This document shows positions 6,119 to 54,957 of a stretch of 64,000 bases of DNA, piece after piece. Under the pieces are notes generated by a model. The model searched no databases and was not told the origin of the DNA. It saw nothing but the letters and a program-made list of their open reading frames with translations. Within the stretch, counting starts at the first letter, position 1; each line of letters opens with the position of its first letter. A program made the translations under genes and the position numbers. The stretch is taken from contig JBDRIV010000002.1 in NCBI GenBank assembly GCA_043815505.1, forward strand, positions 438,943 through 502,942, in the 5' to 3' direction. The DNA is from a bacterium (GTDB lineage: Bacteria; Patescibacteriota; JABMPQ01; JBDRIV01).

Positions 6119-7125
6119 TGTTTACAAAAAAAGTAGCTATTGATTTAGGTACAGCCAACACTTTAGTCCACGTTCCCAAACGGGGAATTATTATAAATGA
6201 ACCATCGGTAGTGGCTGTGTCCATGGATGACAATAAAATTTTGGCCGTTGGTAATGAAGCTAAAGAAATGCTGGGACGAACTCCGGATACCATTGTTGCC
6301 AATAGACCTTTAAAGGATGGGGTAATTGCTGATTATAGAGTAACTGAGGCGATGCTGAGATATTTTATTACCAAGGCTGTAGGAAACGTTAGATTTCTTA
6401 GACCAGAAGTTATGGTATCAATTCCCGCTGGTATAACTTCAACTGAAAGAAGAGCGGTGATTGATGCTACTATGCAGGCTGGTGCAAAAGCAGCTTATGT
6501 TATTAAGGAGCCAATCTCGGCTGCTATTGGAGCTGGTATACCCATTGGGCAATCCAGTGGTAATATGATTATTGATATTGGAGGTGGAACAACAGAAGTG
6601 GCCGTAATTTCTTTGGGAGGAATCGTGGCTTCAAATTCTGTTCGGGTAGCCGGTAATAAACTGGATAAAGCCATTGCAGATTATGTCAGAAAAAAACATG
6701 GTTTAGCTATTGGTGACAGAACAGCTGAAGATATAAAAATTCATATTGGCAGCGCTTTACCTGAAGAGGAAGAAAGAGAAATGGACATTAGAGGACGTGA
6801 TATGGTTATGGGTCTACCAAAAACAATTAGTATTAGTTCTAACGAAATAACAGAAGCTATTCAAGAACCTTTGCGAGAAATCATTCAAGCTGTGAAGGCA
6901 GTGTTACAAGAAACTCCTCCTGAATTGGCAGCTGACGTTATGGATAAAGGAATAATTATGAGTGGTGGCGGAGCTTTACTTCGCAATCTCGACCAATTAA
7001 TTGCCGATGCCACGGGAGTTCCGTGTTATGTTTCCGATGATCCATTGCTAGCTGTTGCTAAAGGAACTGGCATTGCTTTAGATAATCTTGATTCCTACAA
7101 GCGAAGCATTTTATCTACTAAGTAA
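6118..7125 (+). CDS. mreB: Rod shape-determining protein MreB (paralog 1)
   Basis: Actin-like ATPase motifs AIDLGTANTLV, GRTP, IDIGGGTTEVAVISLGG and MSGGGALLRNLD. Confidence 0.85.
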   Translation: MFTKKVAIDLGTANTLVHVPKRGIIINEPSVVAVSMDDNKILAVGNEAKEMLGRTPDTIVANRPLKDGVIADYRVTEAMLRYFITKAVGNVRFLRPEVMVSIPAGITSTERRAVIDATMQAGAKAAYVIKEPISAAIGAGIPIGQSSGNMIIDIGGGTTEVAVISLGGIVASNSVRVAGNKLDKAIADYVRKKHGLAIGDRTAEDIKIHIGSALPEEEEREMDIRGRDMVMGLPKTISISSNEITEAIQEPLREIIQAVKAVLQETPPELAADVMDKGIIMSGGGALLRNLDQLIADATGVPCYVSDDPLLAVAKGTGIALDNLDSYKRSILSTK

Positions 7126-12036: not shown

Positions 12037-13089
12037 ATGTTTAAACGTTTCAGACAAGTTATTTCTAAAGATATTGGTATTGACCTCGGCACGGCCAATA
12101 CTCTTGTTTATGTTAAAGGCAAGGGCATTGTTATAAATGAACCATCGGTGGTGGCTATTAACAAACAAACTGGCCAAATTTTAGCTATTGGGAATGAGGC
12201 AAAGAAAATGGTGGGCCGAACACCATCACACATTGTGGCTTCTCGGCCACTAGTTGATGGAGTTGTTTCTGACTTTGAGGTAACAGAACAAATGCTAAAA
12301 TATTTTATTGAAAAAGTTCATCAAGAAGGTTTCAATCTTTTTCCGCGACCAAGAGTTGTGATTGGTATTCCTTCAGGAGTAACAGAAGTTGAAAAGAGAG
12401 CCGTGCAAGACGCTGCTCTGCAAGCTGGTGCCAAAGAAGCCTTTCTAATTGAGGAACCAATGGCAGCTGCTATCGGAGCTAGATTACCAGTTCAAGATGC
12501 AACCGGATCAATAATTGTTGACATTGGTGGTGGCACAACCGAAGTGGCAGTTATTTCACTTGGTGGTGTGGTGATTTCTAAATCCTTAAGAATTGCCGGG
12601 GATGAAATGAATGAAAATATTATTCAATATGCTCGTGATGAGTTCAATTTATTACTTGGTGAGAGAACAGCCGAGGATATTAAAATTGCAATTGGTTCCG
12701 CCTTTGAACTTGATGAACCTCTAGAAACCAGTATGCGCGGCCGAGATTTAATTACGGGGCTTCCAAAAGAAGTAGTTGTAAATGATGAACAAATTAGAAA
12801 AGCCTTATCAAAATCAGTACGTACAATTATTAATGAAATTAAAAACACTATTGAAGAAACGCCACCAGAATTAGTGGCTGATATAATGGATAGAGGAATT
12901 ATTCTCGCTGGCGGTGGTGTGCAGTTAAGAAATTTTGATTACTTAGTAATGCAACAAACTCAAATAGCTACTCATATAGCTGACGATCCCATGACTTGTG
13001 TTGTGCGCGGAACTGGTTTAGTTCTAGAAGACATAGACACTCTTCGTGACGTTTTGGTGCCAACTCAATTTGAAAGAGCGCCACATTAG
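12037..13089 (+). CDS. mreB: Rod shape-determining protein MreB (paralog 2, in mreBCD-pbp2 operon)
   Basis: Same actin-like motifs as paralog 1 (IDLGTANTLV, IDIGGGTTEVAVISLGG, LAGGGVQLRN). Followed by mreC, mreD, mrdA. Confidence 0.9.
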   Translation: MFKRFRQVISKDIGIDLGTANTLVYVKGKGIVINEPSVVAINKQTGQILAIGNEAKKMVGRTPSHIVASRPLVDGVVSDFEVTEQMLKYFIEKVHQEGFNLFPRPRVVIGIPSGVTEVEKRAVQDAALQAGAKEAFLIEEPMAAAIGARLPVQDATGSIIVDIGGGTTEVAVISLGGVVISKSLRIAGDEMNENIIQYARDEFNLLLGERTAEDIKIAIGSAFELDEPLETSMRGRDLITGLPKEVVVNDEQIRKALSKSVRTIINEIKNTIEETPPELVADIMDRGIILAGGGVQLRNFDYLVMQQTQIATHIADDPMTCVVRGTGLVLEDIDTLRDVLVPTQFERAPH

Positions 13090-32969: not shown

Positions 32970-33158
32970 TTATTGAATAAGTAATTCATACAGAAAAATA
33001 ACCACACAAGAAAATAAAGCGGCTACACTAATAATAATATAAACCCCAACATAGGTGGAAATATTTGGTTTTGTTAAAGTTTTAACTTTTAAAAAATTTA
33101 TATCTACTTTGTTATACAATTTAAAACTCTGATATTGCTTTTTAAGGAATGGGTTCAT
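32970..33158 (-). CDS. Possible small membrane protein (62 aa), hypothetical
   Basis: ORF with a C-terminal hydrophobic helix, ending just before the terminator. Overlaps the 3' end of the upstream ATPase gene by 17 nt. No recognisable family. Confidence 0.25.
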
Positions 33159-34068
33159 TAATCCAAGATTTTAATACTTTTCTAATATGTTTACTCTCAA
33201 CTTTTAATCTTATTTTGGAAGTGGTATTTTGATCTGAAAGTTTGACCATAGCACAAGCTTCATCAATTAAATCAATGGCTTTATCAGGAAGAAAGCGATT
33301 TTTAATTTTATTAGAAGCTAGATCAACCGCAGTTTTTAAAGCATCATCAGATATAATTACTTTGTGATGATCTTCATAGATTATTTTAAGTCCTTTCAAA
33401 ATACTGATTGTTTCCTCAGGAGTAGGTTCTTTTACAATTAATGGCTGAAAACGTCTTTCCAAAGTCATATCTTTTCTAATCTTATTTTCATATTCATCGG
33501 GAGTGGTTGCACCAATGGCTTGTAATTCTCCTCTAGCTAAAGGTGGTTTTAAAATATCGTCAGCATCAATGGCACCTTCTGCTCCACCAGCACCACTTAG
33601 GGTGTGAACTTCGTCAATAAACAAAATTATTTTTCTTTCTTCACGGCCTATTTCATCCATAATTCCGCGGACACGTTTTTCAAATTCACCGCGATATCTG
33701 GTATCAGCCACAAGGCCTCCTAAATCTAAGGCTAAAACTCTTTTATCTTTTAAAGCCTCTGGCACACCAGCTCGACAAATACGATCTGCCAATCCTTCTA
33801 CAATAGCAGTTTTTCCTACACCGGGAGCACCAATTAGAATGACATTATTTTTAGTACGACGAGACAAAATTTGAATTACTCTTTCAATTTCTTTGTCACG
33901 TCCAATTACAGGATCCAATTTGTTTTCTTTGGCCAAGGTTGTTAAATCACGAGAGTATTGGTCAAGTATAGGAGTTCCTGAGGGGGTATAGAATTTTCGA
34001 TAAACAAAAATAATTGCTATAAAAGCAAACATAAAAGCAAGCCCAATAATTAAATAAAGATTATCCAT
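33142..34068 (-). CDS. Membrane-anchored AAA+ ATPase resembling only the first nucleotide-binding domain (D1) of ClpB/ClpC
   Basis: N-terminal TM helix, then ClpB-D1-like sequence ([43 protein letters not shown]; Walker [11 protein letters not shown]; sensor [12 protein letters not shown]). Ends where the Clp M-domain would begin. No D2. Confidence 0.6.
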
Positions 34069-34982
34069 TAAAAATATTTCTTAAGTTTGAAAAATATTAA
34101 AGTTACTATAGTTATTATAGCCATAAATCCTAGAAGTATCCAGAGACTAGAATTTCCAAACAAGGATTCAATATTTTCCATGTTAACACCAAAGAATCCA
34201 GCTATTAAAGATAGAGGAAGAAGAATAACAGAAATCACCGTTAGGGTTTTCATGCGGTCAGCTAAGCTATGGGACATTAAAGATTCGTTGGTTTCATGAA
34301 GAGCTTTTAAAGTTTCATAGTGATTTTCCAAAACTGAAGTTACTCTATCTATCTCGGCTTTAAAATCTCGTAAAAATATTTTTAGTTCTCGAGAAAAGAA
34401 ATAGTGATTGATATTAAGTAATGAATCAGAAAATTCTTTCATCGGACCCATAACTTTTCGTAAATCAATAATATTGCGCAGAACAATAGAAATTTCCTCT
34501 ACCATTTTCTTCTCTTCTCCCTTGAAAATATTTTCTTCAATATCATCAATATCTTCACTGATATGATCAAGAATAGGTAAGTAAGATTTTATTAGATGAT
34601 TTAGAATGGAATAAAATAAAAACTGCGGTGATTTCATAAAATTATCACGAGCAGTCTGGTGTTTATTAATATTTTCTAAAAATGATAGATAAGAAGTAAT
34701 ATGGCCGGAGTGAACAGTAACAACAAAATCATTGGCCACAAAAATTTCAATCTCCTCAATAGCAAATTGTTTTATTTTTCTTTGGTAAATAGGGACCCGA
34801 ATGGTAGCGAAAACATAGTTTTCGAAACGCTCAACTTTTGAACGCTGATTAGTCGTTAGGCAATCCTCAATATTTAAAGGATGAAACTTGAATTTTGAAG
34901 CAAAAGCCGTGAATTCCTCCCGATTGGGACTGGCTATATCATACCAAGTAAAATTTTTGTTATTTGTTTTAATATAACGCAT
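34068..34982 (-). CDS. corA: CorA-family Mg2+/Co2+ transporter (GVN variant of the GMN motif)
   Basis: Cytoplasmic N-domain plus two C-terminal TMs, with the signature loop as FFGVNMEN. Confidence 0.75.
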
Positions 34983-35061
34983 AAATGCGTATAGATAATA
35001 TCGTTATAATTGTAACATATTTAGTAATAATAGTCAATATAGGGGAATGAAGCCTTAAATT

Positions 35062-35090
35062 TTGACTTATCCAATAATTTGTGATAATAT
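35062..35090 (+). promoter_or_regulatory. Near-consensus sigma70 promoter
   Basis: TTGACT (35062-35067), 17 nt, TAATAT (35085-35090). Coincides with the TTG 'start' of the longest ORF, so the real start is probably ATG 35116. Confidence 0.45.
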
Positions 35091-35115
35091 AAAAATCGAT
35101 TTTAATGAATATTTC

Positions 35116-35541
35116 ATGGATAATAAAAACAAAAATATTAGGAAATTTGGAGAAAAAGAAGCTTCAAGCCAAGAAGCTGGAGCAGAACAACCAGAGAATA
35201 AAAAAGAGATTTTTCCTAAACAAAATGAACAGGTTGAAAGCGGCATAGAGGAAGTAAGAGAAACAGAAGTTGAAAAGGAACAGAAACAAATAATTGATGA
35301 AAAATCAGATCAGGGTGAACGAGACACTAAAAAAGTCAAACCGATTCCGCAAAATCAAATAAATATTGCGCAACAAAATTTACAGCAGTTGGTTAATATT
35401 GCTTTTACCAAAGGAATTGATGAGGCCATTGATCAGGCAAAGAAAACTGATGATCCATACTTAATTGATGAATTACATGATACTTTGGTTTCTGAACTGT
35501 ACGATAAACTAATTGAAGCAGGAAAACTAAAAAAAGATTAA
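35116..35541 (+). CDS. Acidic Glu/Lys-rich hypothetical protein (start trimmed to ATG downstream of promoter)
   Basis: MDNKNKNIRKFGEKEASSQEAGAEQPENKKE... is low-complexity and acidic. C-terminal helical segment DPYLIDELHDTLVSELYDKLIEAGKLKK. Confidence 0.4.
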   Translation: MDNKNKNIRKFGEKEASSQEAGAEQPENKKEIFPKQNEQVESGIEEVRETEVEKEQKQIIDEKSDQGERDTKKVKPIPQNQINIAQQNLQQLVNIAFTKGIDEAIDQAKKTDDPYLIDELHDTLVSELYDKLIEAGKLKKD

Positions 35542-35557
35542 AATTAAAAACAAAAAG

Positions 35558-38113
35558 TTGATTTTATTTGTTGCAGTCCCGCTAAATGAGACTGATAAAA
35601 TTGTAGCCACTACCACACCAATAGAAAATTCTGATAACTGGTGGGTTGTTAGTTTGATTATATTTATATTGCTGATAATAATTACCGTTGCAATTGTTAT
35701 TTTTTTTACTAGAAAAAGAAGGTTACTACCAAGATCACTTAATATGGTAACTTTACTAATTAAGGTTCCTCGGGGTAGAAGAAAACCCAACGAGCAGGAA
35801 GAGGAAGCACAAAAAGAAGAAAAGGACATCGTTGCAGTTTCCGAACACATGTTTGCCACCTTGGCTTCCATTAGAAAAAAGGAAAATAGTTTGCATAAAT
35901 TATTCTTTGGCAAAGATGTAATATCTTTTGAAATTGCTAATGTGGGTGGTAGTATTTATTATTTTGTTTCTGCCCCCAGAACAATTATAAATTTTGTGCA
36001 CGATTCCATTGTGGCTGATTTTCAGAAAGCCGAAGTAGAAATTATTCAAGATTATAATATGTTTGTTCCGGGTGCTAAATATTCAGGTGCTGCTTTAAAA
36101 TTAGCAAAAAAGAACTACCTCCCTTTCAAAACTTATCAAAATATGGAAAGTGATCCTTTAACAAATATAACTTCAGCCATGAGCAGAATTACAGCCAATG
36201 AAGGATCAGCCTTGCAAGTTGTTTTAAAAGAAATTAATAAATCATGGCGTCGAAAAGGTATGAAAATTGCCAGAGAAATGCAACAGGGAAAATCAATTGG
36301 TGAAGCCAGAAAATCTAAATTCATTTCCGATTTTAAGAAAACAGGGAGCAATTCTTTTAAAAATAAAAATCAGAATAACAGACAAATGAATGATTATCTG
36401 GAAGAAAAAAGGCTAACACCAATGCAAGAAGAAACAATTAAATTAATTGAAGGCAAAGGAAATAAAACTGCCTTTGCCGCTAACATCAGAATTTTAGCTT
36501 CAGCAGAAACTAAAGAAAAAGCTGATCAAAATTTAAACGATTTACTAAGTACTTTTAATCAGTACGATTCGCCAGAATATAATAATCTGGTTAGAGCGGG
36601 TGCAATACAAAAGAAATTACTTTATAATTTTGTTTTTCGCCATTTTAATAGCAAACATAAATCAATACTAAGTACCGAAGAATTAGCTAGCTTATATCAT
36701 TTTCCAACAAAATTTACTGAAACACCAAACATTAAATGGTTGGAAGCAAAAACTGCCCCACCACCGGAAAATATTCCCTCCGAAGGAACGCTGATAGGTC
36801 GTAATAAATTTCGGGGTAAAGAAACAAATGTTTTTATTCGCCGGGAAGACAGAAGGCGACACATGTATATTATTGGACAAACTGGTGTGGGTAAATCGGT
36901 CTTACAAATGAATATGGCCATTCAGGATATTAGAAATGGTGAAGGTGTTTGCGTGGTTGATCCGCATGGGGATTTAATAGAAGGAATTTTAAGTAATATT
37001 CCCGATTCAAGAAAAAATGATGTGGTAGTATTTAACCCAGCTGATGTTGATCGTCCAGTTGGTTTGAATATGTTGGAATATAAAAATGAAGAGCAAAAAG
37101 ATTTTGTGGTGCAAGAAATGATAGCCATTTTCTACAAATTGTTTCCACCGGAAATGGTTGGGCCTATGTTTGAACACAACATGAGAAACGTGATGTTAAC
37201 TTTGATGGAAGATACAGAAACTCCTGGAACTATTACAGAAATTCCGCGCATGTTTACCGATCAGGAATATCAAAAATTTAAATTGAGAAAAGTTAAAGAT
37301 CCAGTGGTACGTCAGTTTTGGGAAAAAGAAATGTCCCAAACATCTGATTTTCATAAATCGGAAATGCTAGGTTATTTAATTTCAAAAGTCGGTCGCTTTG
37401 TAGAAAACGGTATGATGAGAAATATTATTGGTCAAAAGAAAAGCGGTTTTGATTTGAAAGATATTATGGATAACCAAAAAATTCTGCTGGTTAATTTATC
37501 GAAAGGAAAAATTGGCGAAATGAATTCCAGCTTATTAGGTTTAATAATTGTTTCTAAAATTCAAATGGCTGCCATGAGTAGAGCCAGTCTGCCTGAAGAT
37601 CAAAGAAAAGATTTCTATTTGTACATCGATGAGTTTCAAAATTATACAACTGATAGTATTGCCACCATTCTTTCCGAAGCTAGAAAGTATCGTTTAAATT
37701 TAATAATTGCTCATCAGTATATATCTCAGCTGATTAAAGACAACAACGACACCAGTATAAGAGATGCAGTTTTTGGAAATGTTGGTACAATTTGTGCTTT
37801 CAGAATTGGTGTGGACGATGCTGAAATTATGGCGAAACAATTTGAACCGGTTTTTGATGATAATGATGTCATCAATGTTGATAAGCATCATGCTTTTGTA
37901 AGATTAATGATAAATAATACCGCCAGCAACGCTTTCAGTATGGACACTTTTCCACCGTATGAGTCACAGGACGAAAAATGTGCTGAAGATATTAAGAATA
38001 TTTCTCGTCTGAAATATGGTGTCAGCCGTTCGGAAGTAGAACAGGATATATTGGACCGAAGCAAATTTGGTGATCAATCATCAAGACAGAATTTTAATGA
38101 ACCAACACTCTAA
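35558..38113 (+). CDS. Membrane-anchored VirD4/TraG/TraD-like (type IV coupling protein family, AAA_10/DUF87-like) ATPase
   Basis: N-terminal TM, ~400-aa non-conserved region, then Walker A (YIIGQTGVGKS), CVVDPHGDL, Walker B (FYLYIDEFQNY) and LIIAHQYISQL sensor. This organisation matches TrwB/VirD4-type hexameric translocases. Confidence 0.55.
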   Translation: MILFVAVPLNETDKIVATTTPIENSDNWWVVSLIIFILLIIITVAIVIFFTRKRRLLPRSLNMVTLLIKVPRGRRKPNEQEEEAQKEEKDIVAVSEHMFATLASIRKKENSLHKLFFGKDVISFEIANVGGSIYYFVSAPRTIINFVHDSIVADFQKAEVEIIQDYNMFVPGAKYSGAALKLAKKNYLPFKTYQNMESDPLTNITSAMSRITANEGSALQVVLKEINKSWRRKGMKIAREMQQGKSIGEARKSKFISDFKKTGSNSFKNKNQNNRQMNDYLEEKRLTPMQEETIKLIEGKGNKTAFAANIRILASAETKEKADQNLNDLLSTFNQYDSPEYNNLVRAGAIQKKLLYNFVFRHFNSKHKSILSTEELASLYHFPTKFTETPNIKWLEAKTAPPPENIPSEGTLIGRNKFRGKETNVFIRREDRRRHMYIIGQTGVGKSVLQMNMAIQDIRNGEGVCVVDPHGDLIEGILSNIPDSRKNDVVVFNPADVDRPVGLNMLEYKNEEQKDFVVQEMIAIFYKLFPPEMVGPMFEHNMRNVMLTLMEDTETPGTITEIPRMFTDQEYQKFKLRKVKDPVVRQFWEKEMSQTSDFHKSEMLGYLISKVGRFVENGMMRNIIGQKKSGFDLKDIMDNQKILLVNLSKGKIGEMNSSLLGLIIVSKIQMAAMSRASLPEDQRKDFYLYIDEFQNYTTDSIATILSEARKYRLNLIIAHQYISQLIKDNNDTSIRDAVFGNVGTICAFRIGVDDAEIMAKQFEPVFDDNDVINVDKHHAFVRLMINNTASNAFSMDTFPPYESQDEKCAEDIKNISRLKYGVSRSEVEQDILDRSKFGDQSSRQNFNEPTL

Positions 38114-38182
38114 CTTGACTGATTTCAGGTGTATGATATAATTTTTGTACTAAACCCCATTTTAAAAAAATAAACAAACAAA

Positions 38183-38842
38183 ATGCCTAAACAAAAAGAG
38201 GATGAGGCTAAAGACACTTCTTTGCCAGAAGAAGGCTTAAGTCTCCTAAAACAATACATAAAAAGCGCTGAAGCTAGTTTAACATCAGCCAATAAAGTCT
38301 TAACAGATTTAGGAGCTGGAGAAATTGAGTTTACTGATGATATAAAAGAGAGAGCTAAGTCTTTGGCCACAACCGATGTCCCCGACGGGAAAATTGTCGA
38401 GGGCGTTTTTGATGGTCAAAATATGATTGGCCCCGATGGCAAGCAATATCCCGTGCCAGCTAACTATGCTAGTAAATCAAAATTAGTAGAAGGTGACATT
38501 TTGAAACTAACAATCGCCGAGGACGGTTCATTTATTTTTAAACAAATAGGACCAGTAGATAGAAAGAAAGCTATTGGAAAAGTTTCTAAGGGAGATACAG
38601 GAGAATATCAAATAAAAGTTGGTAGTAAAATTTACAAGGTTTTAATGGCGTCGTTAACATATTTTCGGGCTGAACCAGGTGACGAAGTTACAGCTATTAT
38701 TCCTAAATCGAGAAATGCCAAATGGGCAGCCATTGAAAATGTAATAAAGAAAACAGGAAATTTAGCTGAAGATGAAGATATTGATGATTTTGATAACGAA
38801 GACGAAGAAGAGGAAGAAAATGACGACGAAATATTAGTTTAA
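38183..38842 (+). CDS. Hypothetical protein with poly-acidic C-terminal tail
   Basis: 219 aa. Body is beta-rich (GKIVEGVFDGQNMIGPDGKQYPVPANY...). Terminal EDEDIDDFDNEDEEEEENDDEILV resembles acidic partner-binding tails such as the SSB C-terminus. Confidence 0.4.
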   Translation: MPKQKEDEAKDTSLPEEGLSLLKQYIKSAEASLTSANKVLTDLGAGEIEFTDDIKERAKSLATTDVPDGKIVEGVFDGQNMIGPDGKQYPVPANYASKSKLVEGDILKLTIAEDGSFIFKQIGPVDRKKAIGKVSKGDTGEYQIKVGSKIYKVLMASLTYFRAEPGDEVTAIIPKSRNAKWAAIENVIKKTGNLAEDEDIDDFDNEDEEEEENDDEILV

Positions 38843-38901
38843 TGTAATTAACTTGCCAGAAGCCCCTGCCCGCATGAATTTGCGGTCAGGTTTTAATTTA
38901 A

Positions 38902-39333
38902 ATGAATAGACACTTATTACAATTTGTTCGCTTCTCAATTATTGGCCTAATCGGATTTGTCATAGATTTTGGGACATATACTTTATTAACACGAGTTTTT
39001 GGGACAGCAGAACTACCAGCTAATATTACCAGCGTTTTCCTAGCCATTATTTTCAATTTTATAGGGAATAGATATTGGGTATTTAGTTTAAGAGGTAATA
39101 GTGGTTTAACTGGCCAAACAATTAAATATGCCATAGTTAGTGGGGCCGGATATATAGTTCAGCAGCTCATTTTTATACTATTACTTCGAAGTAATGGGTT
39201 TGCAGACCTAGTTCCATTCTTCACAGATTATGCAGCTAAAATAGTTGCAATTTTGATTGTGATGTTTAATAATTACTTTGCCAACAAATTCTGGACTTTT
39301 AGAGTAAAAGAAGAGAAAAATGAACAAGAATAA
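38902..39333 (+). CDS. GtrA-family membrane protein (polysaccharide/glycolipid synthesis accessory)
   Basis: Four TM helices and the GtrA pattern (FVRFSIIGLIGFVIDFGTY...NFIGNRYWVF). Confidence 0.7.
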   Translation: MNRHLLQFVRFSIIGLIGFVIDFGTYTLLTRVFGTAELPANITSVFLAIIFNFIGNRYWVFSLRGNSGLTGQTIKYAIVSGAGYIVQQLIFILLLRSNGFADLVPFFTDYAAKIVAILIVMFNNYFANKFWTFRVKEEKNEQE

Positions 39334-40867
39334 TCACACAACTTTATATAGAAAATATCGACCCAATAAATTCGCCGAAATTATTGGTCAGGAACCAGTG
39401 GTCAAAACTTTGCAGAATGCTATTGCTAAGGGAAAAGTAGCTCATGCTTACTTATTTTCTGGACCTCGCGGGGTGGGGAAAACTACGGTGGCTAGAATCT
39501 TGGCTCAAAGTGTTAACTGTGAAAATTTCAAAAACGGTGAACCCTGCAATAAATGTAAAAGTTGTGAGGCGATGGCAGGTGGCAGTATGGACTTGGTAGA
39601 AATTGATGCTGCTTCCAATAGAGGAATTGATGAGGTTAGAGCTCTGCGCGAAAAAGCTCTGTTTGCTCCGACGGAAGTAAAAATGAAAGTTTTTGTAATT
39701 GATGAGGTTCACATGTTAACTAAAGAAGCTTTCAATGCTCTGTTAAAACTATTGGAAGAACCACCAGCTCACGCTATGTTCATTTTGGCCACCACTGAAC
39801 CGCAAAAAATTGTTGCTACCATTTTGTCCCGTTGCGCTCGTTTTGATTTTCGCCCTGTCAGTAAAAAAGATTTGGATAAACTAGCAAATCTAATTGCCAA
39901 AAAAGAAGAAGTTAAATTAGACATAGCCGCTTTAGATTTAATCGTACGTTCCGCCACTGGATCGGCACGAGATTTACTTAGCATACTCGGACAAATTATA
40001 AATAGTGGCCAGAAAAGTATTGTGGAAAGAGACGTAAAGGATTTACTGGGCGTGCAAGATCAAACACAAATTCCTATCTTTGTTGGATATTTAATAAAGA
40101 AAAAATCTGGTCAAGCGATTGAACATATCAACGAAATATTATTTTCGGGTTATGATGCCAAAGAATTGAGAAACAATATTTTAGAATATCTACGTTTATT
40201 ATTACTTGCCAAAAACGAAATTAAAAACATTGATATCCCAGCAGTTTATGAAACCGAAATTAGTAAACAAAAATCTGAAATTTCTGAAGTAGAAATAATA
40301 CTAATGATTAAAACCTTTCTGGATATAAATAAATGGTTGGCCGTTTCACCGGTTATAAGTTTACCTTTTGAATTGGCTATAACTGAAATAGTTAGTTCCG
40401 ATGAGGACATAGATAATGATAATGATAATGATGATGAGGAGGTAATAAGTGAAAAAAAGGAAATTAAGGAAATTAAACCAGTTCAAAAAAGTGAAAAAAT
40501 TGAATCAACTATAGAAACGTCAAAATTAAAAACTCCCATAAATAGTATTGAAAAATCGTGGCAAAAAGTAATTGAAAACTTACGTAGTGAAAACTTTTCA
40601 GTTTCGACATTTTTACAAGTTTCTATTCCTGCTAAGATAAAGAAAAATATTTTGGTTATTGCCTGTAAATTTAGTTTTCATAAAGAGAAAATAAATGAAA
40701 TGAGAAATAAAATGATAATTGAAGAAGTTTTGGAAAAGGTATTTGGAGAAAAGATTAAAATTGAGGTTGAAGTTAAAGAAGATTTGGAAATAAATAAAGT
40801 AGAGCTTAAAAAAGCTAAAGCATCTAGCAATGAATTGGTGAATGATGCTGAAAACGCATTTTTATAA
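39320..40867 (+). CDS. dnaX: DNA polymerase III subunit gamma/tau
   Basis: KYRPNKFAEIIGQEPVVKTLQNA...AHAYLFSGPRGVGKTTVARILA, zinc module (CNKCKSCEAMAGG), SRC motif (ILSRCARFDF). Confidence 0.9.
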   Translation: MNKNNHTTLYRKYRPNKFAEIIGQEPVVKTLQNAIAKGKVAHAYLFSGPRGVGKTTVARILAQSVNCENFKNGEPCNKCKSCEAMAGGSMDLVEIDAASNRGIDEVRALREKALFAPTEVKMKVFVIDEVHMLTKEAFNALLKLLEEPPAHAMFILATTEPQKIVATILSRCARFDFRPVSKKDLDKLANLIAKKEEVKLDIAALDLIVRSATGSARDLLSILGQIINSGQKSIVERDVKDLLGVQDQTQIPIFVGYLIKKKSGQAIEHINEILFSGYDAKELRNNILEYLRLLLLAKNEIKNIDIPAVYETEISKQKSEISEVEIILMIKTFLDINKWLAVSPVISLPFELAITEIVSSDEDIDNDNDNDDEEVISEKKEIKEIKPVQKSEKIESTIETSKLKTPINSIEKSWQKVIENLRSENFSVSTFLQVSIPAKIKKNILVIACKFSFHKEKINEMRNKMIIEEVLEKVFGEKIKIEVEVKEDLEINKVELKKAKASSNELVNDAENAFL

Positions 40868-40946
40868 GAGAGTAAAAATAAAAAAGCAAAGAGCAAATAA
40901 GCGATCGTAATAATTTTAATTTTTCTCTTTGAATTTTAATCTTTTA

Positions 40947-41018
40947 TGGGGAGTAGCCAAGCGGTAAGGCACATGGTTTTGGTCCATGCATTCGGGGGTT
41001 CGAATCCCTCCTCCCCAG
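40947..41018 (+). tRNA. tRNA-Gln (anticodon UUG)
   Basis: Cloverleaf by hand: acceptor TGGGGAG/CTCCCCA, 3-bp D-stem GCC/GGC with loop AAGCGGTAA, anticodon stem CATGG/CCATG with loop TTTTGGT (anticodon TTG), T-arm GGGGG-TTCGAAT-CCCTC, discriminator G. Near-identical in layout to E. coli tRNA-Gln. CCA not encoded. Confidence 0.85.
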
Positions 41019-41104
41019 GATAGAGGTTTGAGTATCGTGCAACCCACGTGCTTCAAAAGCCCTCCTAGGATTAGCTCGTAATAAGACTCAAAAATACAAA
41101 GAAT

Positions 41105-41123
41105 CGCCAAAAGGGCGGTTTTT
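41105..41123 (+). terminator. Putative intrinsic terminator downstream of tRNA-Gln
   Basis: CGCC-aaaag-GGCG hairpin followed by TTTTTT. Confidence 0.4.
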
Positions 41124-41154
41124 TGGTAGGATAATTTTATATAACAAAATATAA

Positions 41155-41667
41155 ATGCAGACATATTTATTAATTGGACTAATTATAATTCTCGGAACTT
41201 TTGTTTATGCAAATATTCGAGCTATTGGATGGGTGCCGATGAAATCGAAGGACATTGCTAAAGTTCTAGAATTAGCAGATTTAAAACCAAATGAAACTTT
41301 TTGTGATTTAGGTTGTGGTGACGGAAAGCTGATAATGGCCGCCGGACAAAAAGCTCAAGCGTTGGGATATGATATCTCAATTCCCTTGTATATTGTTGCT
41401 AAAATTAGATCCTTCTTTAGTAAAGGAAAAGTACAAGTAAAATTACGAGATTTCTGGTTGGTAAATTTAGAAAACTGCGATGTGGTATTTTTCTTTCTAA
41501 TTCCGAGAATTTTCCCTAAAATGAAAGAAAAATTGGAAAAGGAATTAAAAACTGGTGCCAGAGTTATAATTTATGTTTGGCCCATGCCGGGATGGAAAAT
41601 TAATAAAGTTTTTAAAAATAAAAACGACCACTCTATTTATTTATATAAAATAGGAGATTTAAAGTAA
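41155..41667 (+). CDS. Class I SAM-dependent methyltransferase (N-terminal TM)
   Basis: Motif I FCDLGCGDGKL. Short Rossmann-fold MTase preceded by a hydrophobic helix. Confidence 0.6.
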   Translation: MQTYLLIGLIIILGTFVYANIRAIGWVPMKSKDIAKVLELADLKPNETFCDLGCGDGKLIMAAGQKAQALGYDISIPLYIVAKIRSFFSKGKVQVKLRDFWLVNLENCDVVFFFLIPRIFPKMKEKLEKELKTGARVIIYVWPMPGWKINKVFKNKNDHSIYLYKIGDLK

Positions 41668-42191: not shown

Positions 42192-42836
42192 ATGACAGAA
42201 GAAAACACAACTCCATCCGAAAATGAGCCAAAAGAAGACTCAAAAGATGGAGATAAAAAGAAAAATAACAAAGTTTTAATTATAGTTATAATTTTAGTTG
42301 GTGCTCTAATAATATTAGGATTTGCAGCTTCAGCTATATTTGGTTGGATGGGGAAGAAAGTGGTTGAAAATGTTATAGAAAATACTGCTGAATCAAGTTT
42401 AGGAGAAGGTGCAGATGTTGATATTGATGAAGATGGATATACAATTACCAATAATGGCACAACGGTATCAGGAGATGAGAACAGTTATAGTATGACATCA
42501 GATGACGGATCAATTAAAAGTGGAACAGCAGCAGAACTTCCAAGTGATTGGCCAAGTAACATCCCGGAATACAGTGGATCTGAACTATCTTCTACTACTG
42601 ATATTTCCGGAACCATGTCAGCATATTATGAATCAACAGATAGTGTTAGTGATGTTGCAAGCTATCTTAAAGATAAATTGGAAAAAGCTGGTTATATAAT
42701 TGGTGATACATATACTACCAATGATTCCTATATGTATACATTTTCGGATAATACTTACGATGGTTCATTGAATGTATATTCTTATGAAGATGGAAAAACA
42801 ACTTACGCAATTATTTTAGGACCAAAAACTGAATAA
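42192..42836 (+). CDS. Membrane-anchored Ser/Thr/Asp-rich extracytoplasmic protein, hypothetical
   Basis: Acidic N-terminal tail, one TM (VLIIVIILVGALIILGFAASAIF), S/T/D/Y-rich exodomain. Confidence 0.4.
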   Translation: MTEENTTPSENEPKEDSKDGDKKKNNKVLIIVIILVGALIILGFAASAIFGWMGKKVVENVIENTAESSLGEGADVDIDEDGYTITNNGTTVSGDENSYSMTSDDGSIKSGTAAELPSDWPSNIPEYSGSELSSTTDISGTMSAYYESTDSVSDVASYLKDKLEKAGYIIGDTYTTNDSYMYTFSDNTYDGSLNVYSYEDGKTTYAIILGPKTE

Positions 42837-43324
42837 TGGAAGACGAGAAAAAAAAATTAAGAGTCGGTTGGTTTACGTTTTCTTGTTGTGAAGATTCCAC
42901 GGTTATAATGATCGAAGTCTTAAACGATCATTGGCAAGAATGGAGAAAGCTAATTGATTTTCGCCACGCCCGCGTTTTACAAAGAAAAAACGTTTTAGAT
43001 GAAATGGACGTGGCTTTTGTTGAGGGCGCAATAACATCTGAAGAATATGTAAAGAAAGTAAAGAAGATTAGAGATTTAGCAAAAGTTGTTGTAGCGGTGG
43101 GCGCTTGTGCCGTAACTGGTATGCCTTCTGGACAAAGAAATAATTTTGACGAAAAAACAAAAGCAGAAGTTCAATTTTTAGTAGAGAGGTTTAAACAACT
43201 TGATAGAGTTATGAAAGTTGGAGAAGTAATTAAAGTTGATGCGGAACTTCCTGGATGTCCAATGGACCCTAATCAATTCATAGAGCTTGTAGAAAAAGCC
43301 TTTAAAGATTTTAAAATCAAATAA
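42836..43324 (+). CDS. [NiFe] hydrogenase small subunit, minimal NuoB-like (proximal 4Fe-4S only)
   Basis: Only four Cys, arranged as in NuoB/Oxidored_q6 small subunits: FSCCEDS ... VGACAVTGMP ... LPGCPMDP. No medial or distal cluster ligands. Start overlaps the large-subunit gene boundary. Confidence 0.7.
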   Translation: MEDEKKKLRVGWFTFSCCEDSTVIMIEVLNDHWQEWRKLIDFRHARVLQRKNVLDEMDVAFVEGAITSEEYVKKVKKIRDLAKVVVAVGACAVTGMPSGQRNNFDEKTKAEVQFLVERFKQLDRVMKVGEVIKVDAELPGCPMDPNQFIELVEKAFKDFKIK

Positions 43325-44631
43325 TGCATACATTTGATTTATCACTTGGTGAAATTACAAAAGTTGAAGGCGCTGCTTCGCTAGATTTGAGTGTAAAAGA
43401 CAATAAGGTTACCAGTGTAAAATTTAAAATTGACGAGCATAAAAGATTTTACACACAAGCTATGCGGGGAAAAATGGTTATGGCCCTACCGCAACTGTTG
43501 GCTAGGATTTGTGGAACTTGTTCTAATGCTCATCTTTTATGTAGTATTGAATCTTGTGAAAATGCTTTAGGAATTGAAGTTTCCCAGCAAACAAATATTT
43601 TACGTGATTTAACCATGGATGGACTGATGATTCGAGATCACGCTTTGCATTTGTATTTGTTTTCCATGCCCGATATTTTTGGCAAAGATAATTTTTTAAG
43701 TTTCGATGAAGATGATGAAACGGAACACCAAATGTTGCATGATGCTTTTGAAATAAAAGCCGTTGGAGATGGTTTGGCCAAGTTAGTTTCTGGAAGAAGT
43801 GTCCACGCTATGTTTCCAACAATTGGAGGATTTAACAATGAAGTTAAAAAAGAAGATATTGCTCCAATTATGGAAAAATTAAAAAAAACTCGACCAGCAG
43901 TTTTGCGCTTAATGGAAGTGTTTGCTGAGGCCGATTTTCATTTAGATAGAGAAACGCAGTTCATGGCCATCGTGGGCGATAATGAATTTAATTATTTACG
44001 AGGAAAATTAAAAACTAGTGATGGTATGGAAAAAGATGAAAAGGAATTTAGAGATCATTTGGAACATGTTGTTTTGCCATATTCACAAGCTTCTGGTTAT
44101 AAATATAAAGGAACATCTTTCATGGTTGGTTCTATGGCGAGAATTAATTTAGCCAAAGAATTATTGGAAGATGAAACCAAAAAAGATGCCAAAAAGTATT
44201 TGGACATGTTTCCCACAACCGATATTTTTCAAAACAATTTAGCTCAAGCAATAGAAATATTGAACAGTATTGACCATGCAATTAAAGTATTTGCTACGAC
44301 GGAATTCAAAAAAGAAGATCTCATAAAAGCAGAGCCTCCCAAAGAAGAGACTGTTGGTATTGGCGTGATAGAAGCGCCCCGTGGAACGCTTTATCATAAA
44401 ATAGTTTTGCAACCAGATAATAAAGTAAAAGAAGGTGAAATTATTGTTCCTACTGGTCAAAATCAGATTAATATTGAACAAGATATTAAAACTTTGGTAG
44501 AAAAAAATCTAGACAAGCTAGATAAAGATGGAATGGCCATGGAAATAGAAAAACTTATTCGGGCTTATGATCCTTGTATGAGTTGCGGGTCACATTTTTT
44601 GAAGGTAAATTGGAACGAAGAGAAAATATAA
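43324..44631 (+). CDS. [NiFe] hydrogenase large (catalytic) subunit
   Basis: N-terminal L1 motif RICGTCSNAH and C-terminal L2 motif DPCMSCGSH, the two CxxC pairs ligating Ni-Fe. A short C-terminal extension (FLKVNWNEEKI) follows the conserved His, as expected for a protease-processed precursor. Confidence 0.8.
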   Translation: MHTFDLSLGEITKVEGAASLDLSVKDNKVTSVKFKIDEHKRFYTQAMRGKMVMALPQLLARICGTCSNAHLLCSIESCENALGIEVSQQTNILRDLTMDGLMIRDHALHLYLFSMPDIFGKDNFLSFDEDDETEHQMLHDAFEIKAVGDGLAKLVSGRSVHAMFPTIGGFNNEVKKEDIAPIMEKLKKTRPAVLRLMEVFAEADFHLDRETQFMAIVGDNEFNYLRGKLKTSDGMEKDEKEFRDHLEHVVLPYSQASGYKYKGTSFMVGSMARINLAKELLEDETKKDAKKYLDMFPTTDIFQNNLAQAIEILNSIDHAIKVFATTEFKKEDLIKAEPPKEETVGIGVIEAPRGTLYHKIVLQPDNKVKEGEIIVPTGQNQINIEQDIKTLVEKNLDKLDKDGMAMEIEKLIRAYDPCMSCGSHFLKVNWNEEKI

Positions 44632-52109: not shown

Positions 52110-53377
52110 TAAATACTATTGAACATATATATGCTCGCGAAATTCTAGATTCTCGTGGTAATCCCACGGTTTGTGTTGATGTTATTTTAGATAACGGAAA
52201 AAAGGGTGTGAGTGCCGTTCCTTCAGGAGCCTCGGCTGGAATTCATGAAGCTTTGGAACTCAGGGATAACAATATGGCTAGATATTTAGGCAAAGGTGTT
52301 AAAAATGCCGTGGAAAACATTAACAATATTATTGCTAGGGAATTAAAAGGAAAAAGTATTTTAGATCAGGAAAATATTGATAATCTACTTATAGATTTAG
52401 ATGGCACCCATCAAAAATCATATTTGGGTGCTAACGCAATTTTAGGTGTTTCCATGGCTTGCATCAGAGCTCATGCTGTGGCTCGGAACATGGAATTGTT
52501 TAAGGTAATAGCTGATATTTATGGTAATAAAAAAGACTATTTTATACCCACCCCTATGGTTAATATAATTAACGGTGGTAAGCATGCAGATACTAACCTA
52601 AATTTTCAAGAGTTTATGGTCGTACCAGCTAGTGATATTGATTACAAAGAACAACTTCGTTTGGTTTCGGAAGTATTTCATACATTAGCCACTGTTATGA
52701 AATTAAAAAAATTAGATACTGATACTGGTAATGAAGGTGGTTATGCTCCAGATGTAAAATCAAATGAACAACCTTTAGAACTTTTATGTGAAACCTTTGA
52801 TCAAATGCAATACGAACCTGGTAAGGATGTTTTTATTGCGATGGATGTGGCTGCTTCAACCTTTTATAATCCGGGAGATAAAAATTACCATTTATCAGTA
52901 GACAATAAGAAATATAGTGTGGAGCAGATGATAAGTTTGTATAAGAAATTTGTCAATAAATATCCCATTGTTTCAATTGAAGATCCTTTAAATGAGGATG
53001 ATTTTTCTGGGTGGGCTAATCTTAGACAAAAGCTGGGTGAGAATATTATGATTGTAGGTGACGATATTTTTGTAACCAATGTAGAGCGTCTAAAACAAGG
53101 GGTAGAAAAAGGAAGTGCTAATTCAGTTATTATAAAACCAAATCAGGTGGGAACAATTACTGAAACATTTAATTGTATTCGTTTTGCTCGTGATAACGGA
53201 ATTACAACTGTAGTTTCTCATCGTTCTGGTGAAACAATTGACGACACCATTGCTGACATTGCAGTTGGTACCGGTTCCGAATTTATAAAAGCAGGATCTT
53301 GTGCGCACGGTGAACGAGTAGCCAAATATAATCGCTTATTATTGATTGAAGAAAAAATAAAGAAAGATGCAGAATAA
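52106..53377 (+). CDS. eno: Enolase
   Basis: IYAREILDSRGNPTV N-terminus. Metal-binding and catalytic motifs (SHRSGETIDDTIADIAVG, IKPNQVGTITE). Confidence 0.9.
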   Translation: MINTIEHIYAREILDSRGNPTVCVDVILDNGKKGVSAVPSGASAGIHEALELRDNNMARYLGKGVKNAVENINNIIARELKGKSILDQENIDNLLIDLDGTHQKSYLGANAILGVSMACIRAHAVARNMELFKVIADIYGNKKDYFIPTPMVNIINGGKHADTNLNFQEFMVVPASDIDYKEQLRLVSEVFHTLATVMKLKKLDTDTGNEGGYAPDVKSNEQPLELLCETFDQMQYEPGKDVFIAMDVAASTFYNPGDKNYHLSVDNKKYSVEQMISLYKKFVNKYPIVSIEDPLNEDDFSGWANLRQKLGENIMIVGDDIFVTNVERLKQGVEKGSANSVIIKPNQVGTITETFNCIRFARDNGITTVVSHRSGETIDDTIADIAVGTGSEFIKAGSCAHGERVAKYNRLLLIEEKIKKDAE

Positions 53378-54957
53378 AGAAAATAAAAAAATTGTTTTAT
53401 TAGTTTCTCTTGACGGTTGGGGAATAGCCCCACCGTCTCGTGGTAATGCCATTGAACTTGCTAAAACTCCCGTTTATGACAGTTTATTAATGGAATTTCC
53501 TCATGCCACTCTACAAGCCAGTGGTGAAAGTGTGGGATTGCCCTGGCAAGAAATGGGAAATTCAGAAGTTGGTCATATGAATATGGGAAGTGGAAGAATT
53601 ATTTATCAGGATTTAGTGAAAATAAATAAAAGTGTTATGAATGGTTCTTTTTTACATAATCCCGCTTTTAGGGAAGCAACAGCTCACGTTAAGAAAAATA
53701 ATTCTGCTTTGCATTTTATGGGCTTAATGAGTCCAGGCGGAGTTCATAGTCACATGAGTCATTTGTTTGCTTTGATTCAAATGGCCAAAAAGGAAAAAAT
53801 TGAAAAAGTTTACATCCACATTTTTGCTGATGGTAGAGATACGCCACCAAAAAGCATTCTCCAATATTTGCCTGAGCTGCAAAAAGCTATAAAAAAAAAA
53901 TAAAACTGGAGAAATTGCGACTGTAATAGGAAGATTTTATGCTTTAGATAGAGATAGAAGATGGGATCGAATAAAAAAAACTTATGATGCCATTGTCCAT
54001 GGTCGTGGTATAACAGCTAAAACTCCAGAAGAGGCAATAAATGAGTCTTACAAAAAGGAAATTGCTGACGAAGAAATTGAACCAACGGTTATTGAAAAAA
54101 AAGGAAAACCGGTTGCGACTTTAAATGATAATGATGCTGTTATATTTTTTGATTATCGTGCAGATCGAGCGAGACAACTTACTAAAGCTATTATTGTACC
54201 TGGATTTAATAAGTTTGAATTAGGTGAACAAAGAAAGAATCTAAAATTTGTAACCATGACAGAATACGATTTGGATTTACCTGTCAGTGTTGCTTTTCCC
54301 AGAGAAGAAGTTAAAAATTCATTGGGAGAAGTTTTAAGTAATAATAGTATGAAACAATTTCGTGTAGCAGAAACTGAAAAATACGCCCACGTTACATTTT
54401 TTTTCAACTGTGGACAAGTTGACCCCTTTCCAGGCGAGGAAAGAGAGCTTGTTTCCTCACCGATGGTAAATCACTATAATGATGTTCCAGAAATGAGCGC
54501 CTTACCAATAACAGATATAACTGTTAAAGCGGTTTTGTCTAAAAAGTACAATTTTATTTTATTAAATTATGCCAACGCAGATATGCTTGGTCACACCGGT
54601 GATATTGACGCCACCATTAAAGGTATAGAAGTTATTGACAATCAGCTAGGAAAATTAAAAGAAGCAATTTTGCAGATTGGTGGAACGATGGTAATTACTG
54701 CTGATCATGGGAATTGCGAAGTAATGCGTAATTCCAAGACTGGAGAAATTGATAAAGAGCATACCGCCAATCCCGTACCTTTAATCCTTGTTGGCAAAGA
54801 AAAATTGAATCCACAATTAAAAGAAAAACCTGATTTAAGTATTTTGGCACCCTACGGAGTACTAGGAGATATCGCTCCTACAATTTTAGAAATTCTCAAT
54901 ATTCCTAAACCCGAAGAAATGACAGGAATAAGTTTATATAAAATATTGAAACAATAA
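53367..54957 (+). pseudogene. gpmI: 2,3-bisphosphoglycerate-independent phosphoglycerate mutase interrupted by a +1 frameshift in an A10 homopolymer
   Basis: Frame A (53367-53903) encodes the iPGM N-terminus (LLVSLDGWGIAPPSRGNAI...SEVGHMNMG). Frame A+1 is open from 53893 to 54957 and encodes the rest (KTGEIATVIGRFYALDRDRRWDR...FNCGQVDPF...ANADMLGHTGD...ADHGN). The frames switch inside AAAAAAAAAA at 53891-53900. Combined length ~530 aa, as expected for iPGM. Confidence 0.75.

Follow-up and report, generated by a model that had tools for sequence, protein, structure and literature searches.

Gene content of the locus

The 64-kb window analysed here, part of the patescibacterial contig JBDRIV010000002.1, contains three plus-strand open reading frames (ORFs), the central one of which encodes an 851-residue membrane-anchored ATPase related to the type IV coupling proteins (T4CPs) VirD4 and TrwB. 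It is preceded by a gene for a small acidic protein and followed by one for a 219-residue protein, designated dn219, that is predicted to contain two oligonucleotide-binding (OB) barrels:

35062-35541 (+): small acidic protein of the up159 family, 159 residues from TTG, pI 4.73
35558-38113 (+): 851-residue membrane-anchored T4CP-like ATPase, transmembrane (TM) helix - DUF8128 - nucleotide-binding domain (NBD) with all-alpha domain; ATPase1 paralogue type
38183-38842 (+): dn219, 219 residues, pI 4.51; predicted long N-terminal helix, two OB/cold-shock-like barrels (residues ~70-189) and a disordered poly-acidic tail

Minus-strand genes for CorA, a ClpB-like AAA fragment, CysRS, DnaB, YbaB and RecR lie upstream of the locus, and genes for GtrA and DnaX lie downstream of dn219. 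All called ORFs of at least 80 residues in the window were scanned against Pfam or identified directly, and every assignable one is a housekeeping gene. They encode ribosomal proteins, RpoA, MurA, MreB/C, PBP2, HolB, RRF, GreA, LysRS, SerRS, Alr, Ddl, FtsQ, MraY, glycolytic enzymes, RecJ and RNase H. A first-pass annotation, made from the DNA sequence before this analysis, had described the ATPase as embedded among housekeeping genes, away from VirB4, relaxase, pilin or mobile-element genes, and the scan agrees: none of these ORFs encodes VirB4, a relaxase, a pilin, an integrase or a transposase. No meaningful repeats were found flanking the locus, and its base composition shows no shift or anomaly.

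Domain architecture of the ATPase

In the ATPase a single TM helix is followed by DUF8128, which is cytoplasmic, and then by a RecA-like ATPase region carrying an all-alpha insert; the catalytic motifs are intact:

35639-35707 (+): TM helix, residues 28-50, then RKRR (hydropathy scan; helix 28-56 in the AlphaFold2 (AF2) model)
35726-36757 (+): DUF8128 domain, residues ~57-400, alpha/beta, cytoplasmic (PF26449 annotation, invariant columns, AF2)
36758-37957 (+): RecA-like NBD, residues ~401-800, with inserted all-alpha domain
36875-36898 (+): Walker A GQTGVGKS, residues 440-447 (G440, G443, G445 and K446 invariant)
37073-37477 (+): all-alpha domain, residues ~506-640 (eight helices between strands 489-492 and 642-646)
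37613-37642 (+): Walker B region FYLYIDEFQN, residues 686-695 (alignment to TrwB; invariant columns)

The hydrophobic helix with its RKRR flank confirms the N-terminal anchor postulated in the first-pass annotation, and predicts an N-out, C-in topology in which a short N-terminal stretch is external and the bulk of the protein cytoplasmic. Across 34 aligned full-length homologues (49-64% identity), F686, Y687, L688, Y689, D691, E692, F693, Q694 and N695 of the Walker B region are invariant, as is the conserved glutamine within AHQ (residues 718-720). The best-conserved segment of the family is the all-alpha domain, with a mean majority fraction of 0.86, compared with 0.74-0.78 for the NBD, 0.58-0.61 for the DUF8128 region and 0.31 for the loop at residues 246-287.

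Residues ~57-400 had been taken for a long non-conserved linker. This description does not hold, as the region contains many invariant columns, is variable only at the disordered loop of residues 246-287, and is modelled by AF2 as a confident alpha/beta fold (pLDDT mostly 84-94). Its assignment to DUF8128 comes from precomputed annotation: PF26449 is listed, together with PF10412 and PF01935, for the database protein identical to the ATPase (P0001), and PF26449 for all listed homologues, while our own Pfam scan of the ATPase gave no DUF8128 match. An exhaustive HMMER search with residues 57-400 alone matched 1,538 representative clusters. In all matches listed, the similarity starts at about residue 35-75 of the target, and the targets are proteins of ~800-860 residues, fragments or, occasionally, longer proteins. 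Because all listed matches share this position in such proteins, DUF8128 seems to be found only N-terminal to a TrwB-like ATPase, in this architecture. A literature search returned no paper mentioning the domain.

Relationship to coupling proteins and other ring ATPases

Sequence comparisons place the ATPase nearest the T4CPs, which favours the coupling-protein-type C-terminal domain proposed earlier: the top Pfam, NCBIfam and Protein Data Bank (PDB) matches are all T4CPs. Pfam TrwB_AAD_bind matches residues 430-777 with 38.3 bits (cut-off 20.5; profile positions 12-334 of 387), DUF87 matches with 28.3 bits (cut-off 23.2), and TraG-D_C reaches 20.3 bits, slightly under its 22-bit cut-off; FtsK families give no Pfam match even at E ≤ 1. 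The best NCBIfam matches are the TraD and TrbC coupling proteins, all far under their equivalog cut-offs (the top one, SXT_TraD, scores 52.9 bits against a cut-off of 366), so that the curated TraD/VirD4 equivalog thresholds are not passed. Among PDB sequences only TrwB, the top match (E 2e-8), and DotL are significant. In the TrwB alignment GQTGVGKS pairs with GATGTGKS, FYLYIDEFQN with LWLFIDELAS, and the AHQ strand with TrwB catalytic residues.

Fold comparison gave scores of 22.7 for TrwB (365 of 420 residues aligned), 22.3 for the VirB4 C-terminal domain, 21.5 for HerA, 21.4 for DotL, 21.2 for Cag-beta, 17.5 for EccC, 16.1 for TcpA and 15.4 for FtsK. Clustering with FtsK, which the first-pass annotation had named as an outcome that would overturn its view, thus fails on both Pfam signal and fold score, but HerA, named alongside it, is not separated by the fold scores.

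T4CPs usually carry two TM helices, and the variable part of plasmid T4CPs, specific to their substrates, is the all-alpha domain. The ATPase shares with VirD4, TrwB, TraD and TraG T4CPs (compare 1E9R TrwB, 7OVB DotL and 8DOL Cag-beta) the N-terminal anchor, the RecA-like NBD, Walker A and B motifs, the conserved glutamine and the all-alpha domain inserted in the NBD. It differs from them in having one TM helix rather than a pair, in the extra ~340-residue DUF8128 between anchor and NBD, in an all-alpha domain that is its most conserved rather than most variable part, and in being encoded by a chromosomal, vertically inherited gene with no relaxase or mating-pair-formation genes nearby. With FtsK/SpoIIIE and HerA it has in common the ASCE, FtsK-HerA superfamily core, from which a hexameric ring translocase would be expected. 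Unlike FtsK/SpoIIIE, it lacks the FtsK_SpoIIIE motor, the alpha and gamma (winged-helix) domains and the 4TM region; unlike HerA, its N-terminal domain is the alpha/beta DUF8128 and not a HAS-barrel, and the DUF87/HerA similarity is confined to the ATPase core. The core alone also matches the PADLOC model mad8 (54 bits). No NurA, Sir2 or other defence partner was found among the neighbours in 80 homologous loci (described below), and a role as a defence system was ruled out, the mad8 and HerA similarity being limited to the core and unaccompanied by partner genes.

Phage and viral relatives

Full-length relatives, DUF8128 included, occur in phages. The PHROGs family phrog_5156 matches residues 101-836 (E 1e-79), and tblastn matched gp156 of Bacillus phage G (825 residues) to residues 110-846 (E 2e-37) and an 'ATPase domain protein' of phage YungSlug to residues 105-786. 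The DUF8128 region alone aligns to both (E 2e-6 for gp156 and 1e-9 for YungSlug). These homologues of 825-856 residues come from phages of Firmicutes and are only 20-23% identical to the ATPase of the window. In phage G (locus L092, 85967-98243), gp155, 15 bp 5' of gp156, is a VirB4 homologue (4ag5, E 5e-13), and in YungSlug (L093) the homologue comes after two membrane proteins and a peptidoglycan metallopeptidase. The two phages are the only direct genomic link found between the DUF8128-ATPase architecture and type IV secretion system (T4SS)-type partners, and this link agrees with a monoderm (MPF-FATA) origin, as has been proposed for the Patescibacteria T4SS. Phage SP8 (L094) completes the set of Firmicutes phage loci recorded for this architecture. 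SPO1-like phages encode ~900-residue 'VirD4 component-like' proteins that match only the ATPase half.

Two IMG/VR viral contigs of 42-47% GC (L087, 9953-11251; L088, 9902-11272) encode ATPase-half proteins of 432-456 residues that have neither TM helix nor DUF8128 and are, surprisingly, 41-46% identical to residues ~401-834 of the window protein. No VirB4-like gene was detected by phmmer among the neighbours in IMG/VR loci L087-L091, where two large neighbours are AlkB-like and tail-protein-like.

Distribution and conserved gene order

The ATPase belongs to a large, vertically inherited Patescibacteria subfamily of VirD4/TrwB-type T4CP homologues, for which more than 3,200 homologues were detected. 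One genome per species was scanned, which gave 80 loci from essentially all Patescibacteria lineages (Doudna-, Magasanik-, Uhr-, Staskawicz-, Gracili-, Kazan, Berkel-, Roizman-, Gottesman- and Sungbacteria); ORFs were called in all of them and labelled with iterated hidden Markov models, and 73 loci could be evaluated upstream and 67 downstream. The recurrent order is CysRS/CorA, small gene, ATPase, dn219, (GtrA), DnaX, with CysRS and CorA often preceding the locus on the opposite strand. A small same-strand ORF lies within 150 bp 5' of the ATPase in 60 of 73 loci, most gaps being -8 to +30 bp. The dn219 homologue is the next gene in 24 of 67 and no more than six genes away in 39, and 34 of the 67 have DnaX within eight genes downstream. 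Conservation of the three-gene order in relatives, on which the first-pass annotation had staked its proposal, is therefore real, although seven loci run straight from the ATPase into DnaX with no dn219 between. One Doudnabacteria genome and one 1-Mb contig show a 10-gene order nearly identical to that of the window.

Because this housekeeping gene order recurs across Patescibacteria lineages, the ATPase is an ancient chromosomal, vertically inherited gene and not a mobile one. Its orphan status, claimed from the window, extends to the relatives: no T4SS component recurs among 147 otherwise unlabelled neighbours in the 80 loci, where only housekeeping families recur. Among Kerfeldbacteria, one locus has a T4SS_pilin gene two genes downstream of the ATPase.

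A second, longer paralogue (ATPase2, 858-1073 residues) is 35-39% identical to the type found in the window (ATPase1) and contains DUF8128 and the Walker motifs. It occurs in loci L063, L066, L072 (about 11-16 kb), L067 and L086 and, apparently, in Southlakia (SEML1_0293/0294), either in tandem with ATPase1 or directly after a gene with Sigma70_r4 and HARE-HTH domains. The ATPase of the window is 41-43% identical to ATPase1 copies vs. 35-37% to ATPase2 copies.

Doudnabacteria-type loci carry two extra small acidic helical proteins (~138-153 and ~61-70 residues) between the ATPase and the OB protein (L003, 8553-9163; L001, 6148-6778; L007, L008, L019, L020 and L080). The pair is conserved among the Doudnabacteria-type genomes that carry it, and is absent from the window. 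Taxon labels in these data are unreliable: P0052 (L001), labelled 'Candidatus Saccharibacteria' at NCBI, is 72-76% identical to many Doudnabacteria proteins, and several records of metagenome-assembled genomes (MAGs) titled 'uncultured Gammaproteobacteria' carry Patescibacteria synteny.

Small proteins encoded upstream of the ATPase

The upstream ORF of the window stops 16 bp before the ATPase start; its likelier start is the ATG at codon 19 (35116). The N-terminal part of the protein is charged and of low complexity, and a helical segment towards the C-terminus is conserved (...KGI..A...A....DPYLIDELHD.L...); the protein gave no match in Pfam, NCBIfam, PADLOC or PHROG. It belongs to a group of 14 loci, window included, of Staskawicz-, Moranii- and Sungbacteria type, in which the C-terminal helix DPY[IL]LD..HD is conserved (up159). 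A second group of 31 loci (up179) has a median pI of 8.4 and the strongly conserved motif WLK.IPGVNKFFLEQEAKIK, and the remaining upstream proteins are unlabelled and fall outside both. No homology among the up159, up179 and unlabelled groups was detected by hhalign, and the idea of a single upstream family was rejected in favour of at least three families with no detectable mutual homology.

The window itself does contain two small acidic neighbours (pI 4.73 and 4.51), as the first-pass annotation had remarked, but a pI below 6 is found for only 31 of the 60 proteins encoded upstream of the ATPase. What is conserved is the close linkage of the ATPase to a small partner gene, not the acidity of its product. 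The short or overlapping gaps between the two suggest translational coupling. CagZ (with Cag-beta) and TraM (with TraD) are small T4CP partner proteins. The arrangement can be likened to Cag-beta/CagZ of H. pylori and TraD/TraM of the F plasmid by gene position only, as the upstream proteins show no sequence similarity to CagZ or TraM.

The tandem-OB protein dn219

The dn219 family comprises at least 8,000 proteins, has no Pfam domain, and is almost entirely labelled hypothetical; members are sometimes mislabelled 'L7/L12'. Its core is nearly invariant (FDGQNMIGPDGK.YPVPANYASKSKLVEGD.LKLTI...). In fold comparison the barrels are similar to the RNase R cold-shock/S1 domains, and a profile search against PDB sequences gave no match. 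The SSB-like poly-acidic tail reported earlier is real in the window, where 17 of the last 30 residues are D or E, the most acidic among 39 homologues, but it is missing from roughly half of these. Where present, the tails often end in an acidic-hydrophobic tip (ELEEI, DEEL, DEILV).

Two features flank the gene in the window:

38115-38142 (+): sigma-70-like promoter match TTGACT, 16 nt, TG-TATAAT, in the spacer between the ATPase and dn219
38865-38895 (+): imperfect G+C-rich hairpin followed by TTTT, terminator-like, 3' of dn219

No other site in 34900-39400 fits the sigma-70 consensus as well (11 of 12 positions, with an extended -10). The evidence is a match to the consensus only, and the region contains as many such matches overall as its shuffled sequence would be expected to. 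The segment 38835-38905 folds with -17.1 kcal/mol (z -2.4); a strict terminator scan did not list the hairpin. With the best promoter-like match on its 5' side and a hairpin and T-run on its 3' side, dn219 may form its own transcription unit.

Among labelled loci, dn219 tracks dnaX as much as it does the ATPase, and where genes are inserted after the ATPase (L003, L004 and L012) it stays with GtrA and dnaX. Taken on its own, dn219 is arguably the least understood item of the locus.

Published survey and genetics of Southlakia

A recent survey found VirB4 in 2,417 of 3,035 Patescibacteria genomes, and 5,713 VirD4-type T4CP homologues in 2,918 of them, with almost no relaxases (Quinonero-Coronel et al. 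2025, PMC12102498). Its authors call the t4cp of Southlakia non-essential and state that exaptation of t4cp could not be excluded. Orphan, relaxase-less Patescibacteria T4CP homologues are thus already published, and the gene of the window is one of them, in the terms of the survey a CONJScan-type T4CP match far from virB4 and with no relaxase. In this respect the finding is less new than the first-pass annotation supposed. Not covered by the survey are the domain architecture with DUF8128, the division into two paralogue types, the small gene conserved upstream, the synteny of dn219 with dnaX and the homologues in phages.

In Southlakia, an essential T4SS cluster has no recognisable coupling protein or relaxase (Wang et al. 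2023, PMC10633639); the gene data that follow come from the supplement to that study. SEML1_0293, a 921-residue protein with a T4SS DNA-binding domain, is non-essential, and the gene that precedes it, with Sigma70_r4 and HARE-HTH domains, is essential. Because ATPase2 in the sampled loci adjoins the same sigma-like gene, SEML1_0293 appears to be of the ATPase2 type and not of the ATPase1 type of the window. SEML1_0142, annotated 'TraM recognition domain', spans 1,019 residues, with a TM helix (51-70) and a P-loop domain (381-800); both it and a 139-residue gene 12 bp 5' of it are essential. The published 'non-essential t4cp' of Southlakia thus appears to be the second paralogue type, while another T4CP-like gene is essential there. 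On architecture and the small upstream gene, SEML1_0142 is a plausible ATPase1 orthologue. Synteny around SecY and DUF2178 did not match SEML1_0142 or SEML1_0293 to the window gene, and a search with P0052, chosen by its 'Saccharibacteria' label, returned only Doudnabacteria-type proteins.

The Southlakia orthologue of dn219 is SEML1_0404, with 171 residues and two OB domains (same RNase R template), which is essential by transposon sequencing (Tn-seq), sits at a distance of two genes from dnaX and has no T4CP in its vicinity (PMC10633639 supplement). In Southlakia both FtsK, which is complete, and a canonical SSB are present and essential (PMC10633639 supplement). A role for the ATPase as FtsK replacement was ruled out on that FtsK and on the missing FtsK Pfam signal. 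Likewise, dn219 as the SSB of the cell was ruled out by its cold-shock/S1-like fold, its non-conserved tail and the canonical SSB of Southlakia; dn219 itself has no SSB Pfam match.

Other features of the window

Several further features were recorded in the window, whose sole tRNA is a tRNA-Gln after dnaX:

6118-7125 and 12037-13089: two MreB paralogues, with MreC and PBP2, in an ultrasmall-cell genome
19781-20932: 383-residue protein with a weak bactofilin match
33142-34068 (-): the ClpB-like ORF, 308 residues, an N-terminal hydrophobic helix and a single ClpB/ClpC-type module (AAA + AAA_lid_9)
40916-41164 (-): 82-residue ORF overlapping the tRNA-Gln (40947-41018, +), almost certainly not a gene
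42836-44631: NiFe-hydrogenase-like small subunit (Oxidored_q6), then a 435-residue protein with RxCGxC and DPCxxC motifs
53367-53903 and 54256-54957: cofactor-independent phosphoglycerate mutase (iPGM) split into two ORFs, ~350 bp between

The 308-residue ORF resembles a membrane-anchored or truncated Clp NBD1 and has a 1-base overlap with the CorA stop; a relative in locus L016 is full-length, at 882 residues. The motifs of the 435-residue protein, read directly from the sequence, are typical of a hydrogenase large subunit, and the pair stands within an otherwise fermentative, reduced genome. The iPGM halves correspond to an iPGM_N/Metalloenzyme N-part and a Metalloenzyme C-part, and the split could reflect a frameshift, a pseudogene or an intervening element.

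Proposed function of the locus

Our preferred reading, which we consider about as likely as not, is that the ATPase serves the chromosomal Patescibacteria T4SS as a coupling ATPase encoded in trans, and that the upstream protein is its adaptor or regulator. By analogy with TrwB, the ATPase would form a hexamer anchored in the membrane and act as an NTP-driven translocase or as a receptor for substrates. It would act in trans with a chromosomal, relaxase-less T4SS whose cluster has no coupling protein of its own and whose components (VirB4, TrsD, VirB3/PrgI, VirB6, VirB8 and pilins) would be encoded elsewhere, often near dnaA, and it would hand over to the T4SS channel a single conserved substrate, either protein or nucleic acid and not a plasmid. 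DUF8128 and the small upstream protein may be docking or regulatory parts, the small gene serving as a lineage-variable adaptor or regulator, as CagZ does for Cag-beta and TraM for TraD. The dn219 protein would be a separate, essential nucleic-acid-binding protein, linked to the ATPase and dnaX through an ancient gene order and probably no dedicated subunit of the ATPase. The catalytic motifs, the vertical inheritance, the small upstream gene, the pairing with VirB4 in phage G, the gene neighbours in YungSlug, the pilin gene of the Kerfeldbacteria locus, the broad occurrence of T4CP homologues and VirB4 in the phylum (PMC12102498) and the Southlakia T4SS without a coupling protein all speak for this proposal.

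Several observations weigh against it. The window has no T4SS gene near the ATPase, and none recurs across the 80 loci; that the source organism has a T4SS is assumed, the DNA examined being the window; and only 148 of the 5,713 Patescibacteria T4CP homologues lie near virB4 (PMC12102498). T4CP homologues occur in more genomes than VirB4, which fits an independent role, though the two counts are blurred by MAG incompleteness and by the two paralogues. The all-alpha domain, variable and substrate-specific in plasmid T4CPs, is here conserved above all other parts. By fold score alone, TrwB (22.7) is not set apart from the VirB4 C-terminal domain (22.3) or HerA (21.5). Finally, SEML1_0293 is dispensable while the Southlakia T4SS is essential (PMC10633639 supplement), although SEML1_0293 represents the second paralogue type.

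The main rival is a T4SS-independent membrane translocase for nucleic-acid handling. It would pump or accept DNA or RNA at the membrane, for example to take up nucleic acid where episymbiont and host meet or to serve a step tied to replication, with the tandem-OB protein as cytoplasmic single-strand binder and the upstream protein as regulator. We regard this as rather unlikely. The deep synteny with dnaX, dnaB, recR, ybaB and the OB-fold protein points towards it, as do the spread of T4CP homologues beyond that of VirB4, an all-alpha domain whose conservation implies one universal ligand, the exaptation raised by the survey authors (PMC12102498) and, if SEML1_0142 is the orthologue, the essentiality of both gene and small upstream partner. 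Yet Southlakia keeps an essential FtsK and SSB, so that the ATPase replaces neither; comEC is dispensable there (PMC12857230), which argues against an essential uptake role; dn219 lies away from T4CPs in that organism and has an apparent promoter and terminator of its own in the window; and the phage homologues pair with VirB4. A bolder version, in which ATPase1 and its translationally coupled partner form an essential, Patescibacteria-wide, VirB4-independent translocase moving one universal substrate across a single membrane at the host interface, seems to us unlikely; it draws on the wider spread than VirB4, the conserved all-alpha domain and the essentiality of SEML1_0141/0142, and in it the tandem-OB protein could be the cytoplasmic nucleic-acid partner, with cousins of the translocase in Firmicutes phages.

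The first-pass annotation had instead suggested that the three genes could form one substrate-recruitment module; in a strict form of this reading, both acidic flanking proteins would be dedicated adaptors or substrates of the ATPase. The conserved order (of 67 loci, 24 have dn219 as the next gene and 39 have it at most six genes away) and the acidic-hydrophobic tips of many dn219 tails, which could serve as a C-terminal recognition signal, are in its favour. The module is nevertheless weakened to the point of being decidedly doubtful: the upstream proteins are neither consistently acidic (up179 median pI 8.4) nor detectably homologous to each other, about half of the dn219 homologues have no tail, seven loci go from ATPase to DnaX without dn219, and dn219 keeps to dnaX after insertions (L003, L004, L012) and is unlinked from T4CPs in Southlakia. 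That the gene is a remnant of a mobile or conjugative element, or a mislabelled FtsK/SpoIIIE-, HerA- or defence-type ATPase, is essentially refuted. The DUF87/HerA match at 28 bits and the 54-bit mad8 match over the ATPase core are outweighed by the lack of a HAS-barrel and of NurA, Sir2 or another defence partner nearby, and a mobile-element remnant was ruled out, as the housekeeping flanks are the same across the phylum, no integrase, relaxase or flanking repeat was found, and the base composition does not shift.

Patescibacteria depend on hosts, and the T4SS is essential for their epibiotic growth, with a cluster that has neither coupling protein nor relaxase. A near-universal, vertically inherited T4CP-like ATPase is the obvious candidate for the missing substrate gate of this T4SS, and it combines a lineage-specific extra domain with an unusually conserved substrate-binding domain and a dedicated small partner; the alternative is a second translocase hitherto unrecognised. 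For the field, we draw attention to the existence of two ATPase paralogue types and of a very large, essential tandem-OB family without a Pfam model.

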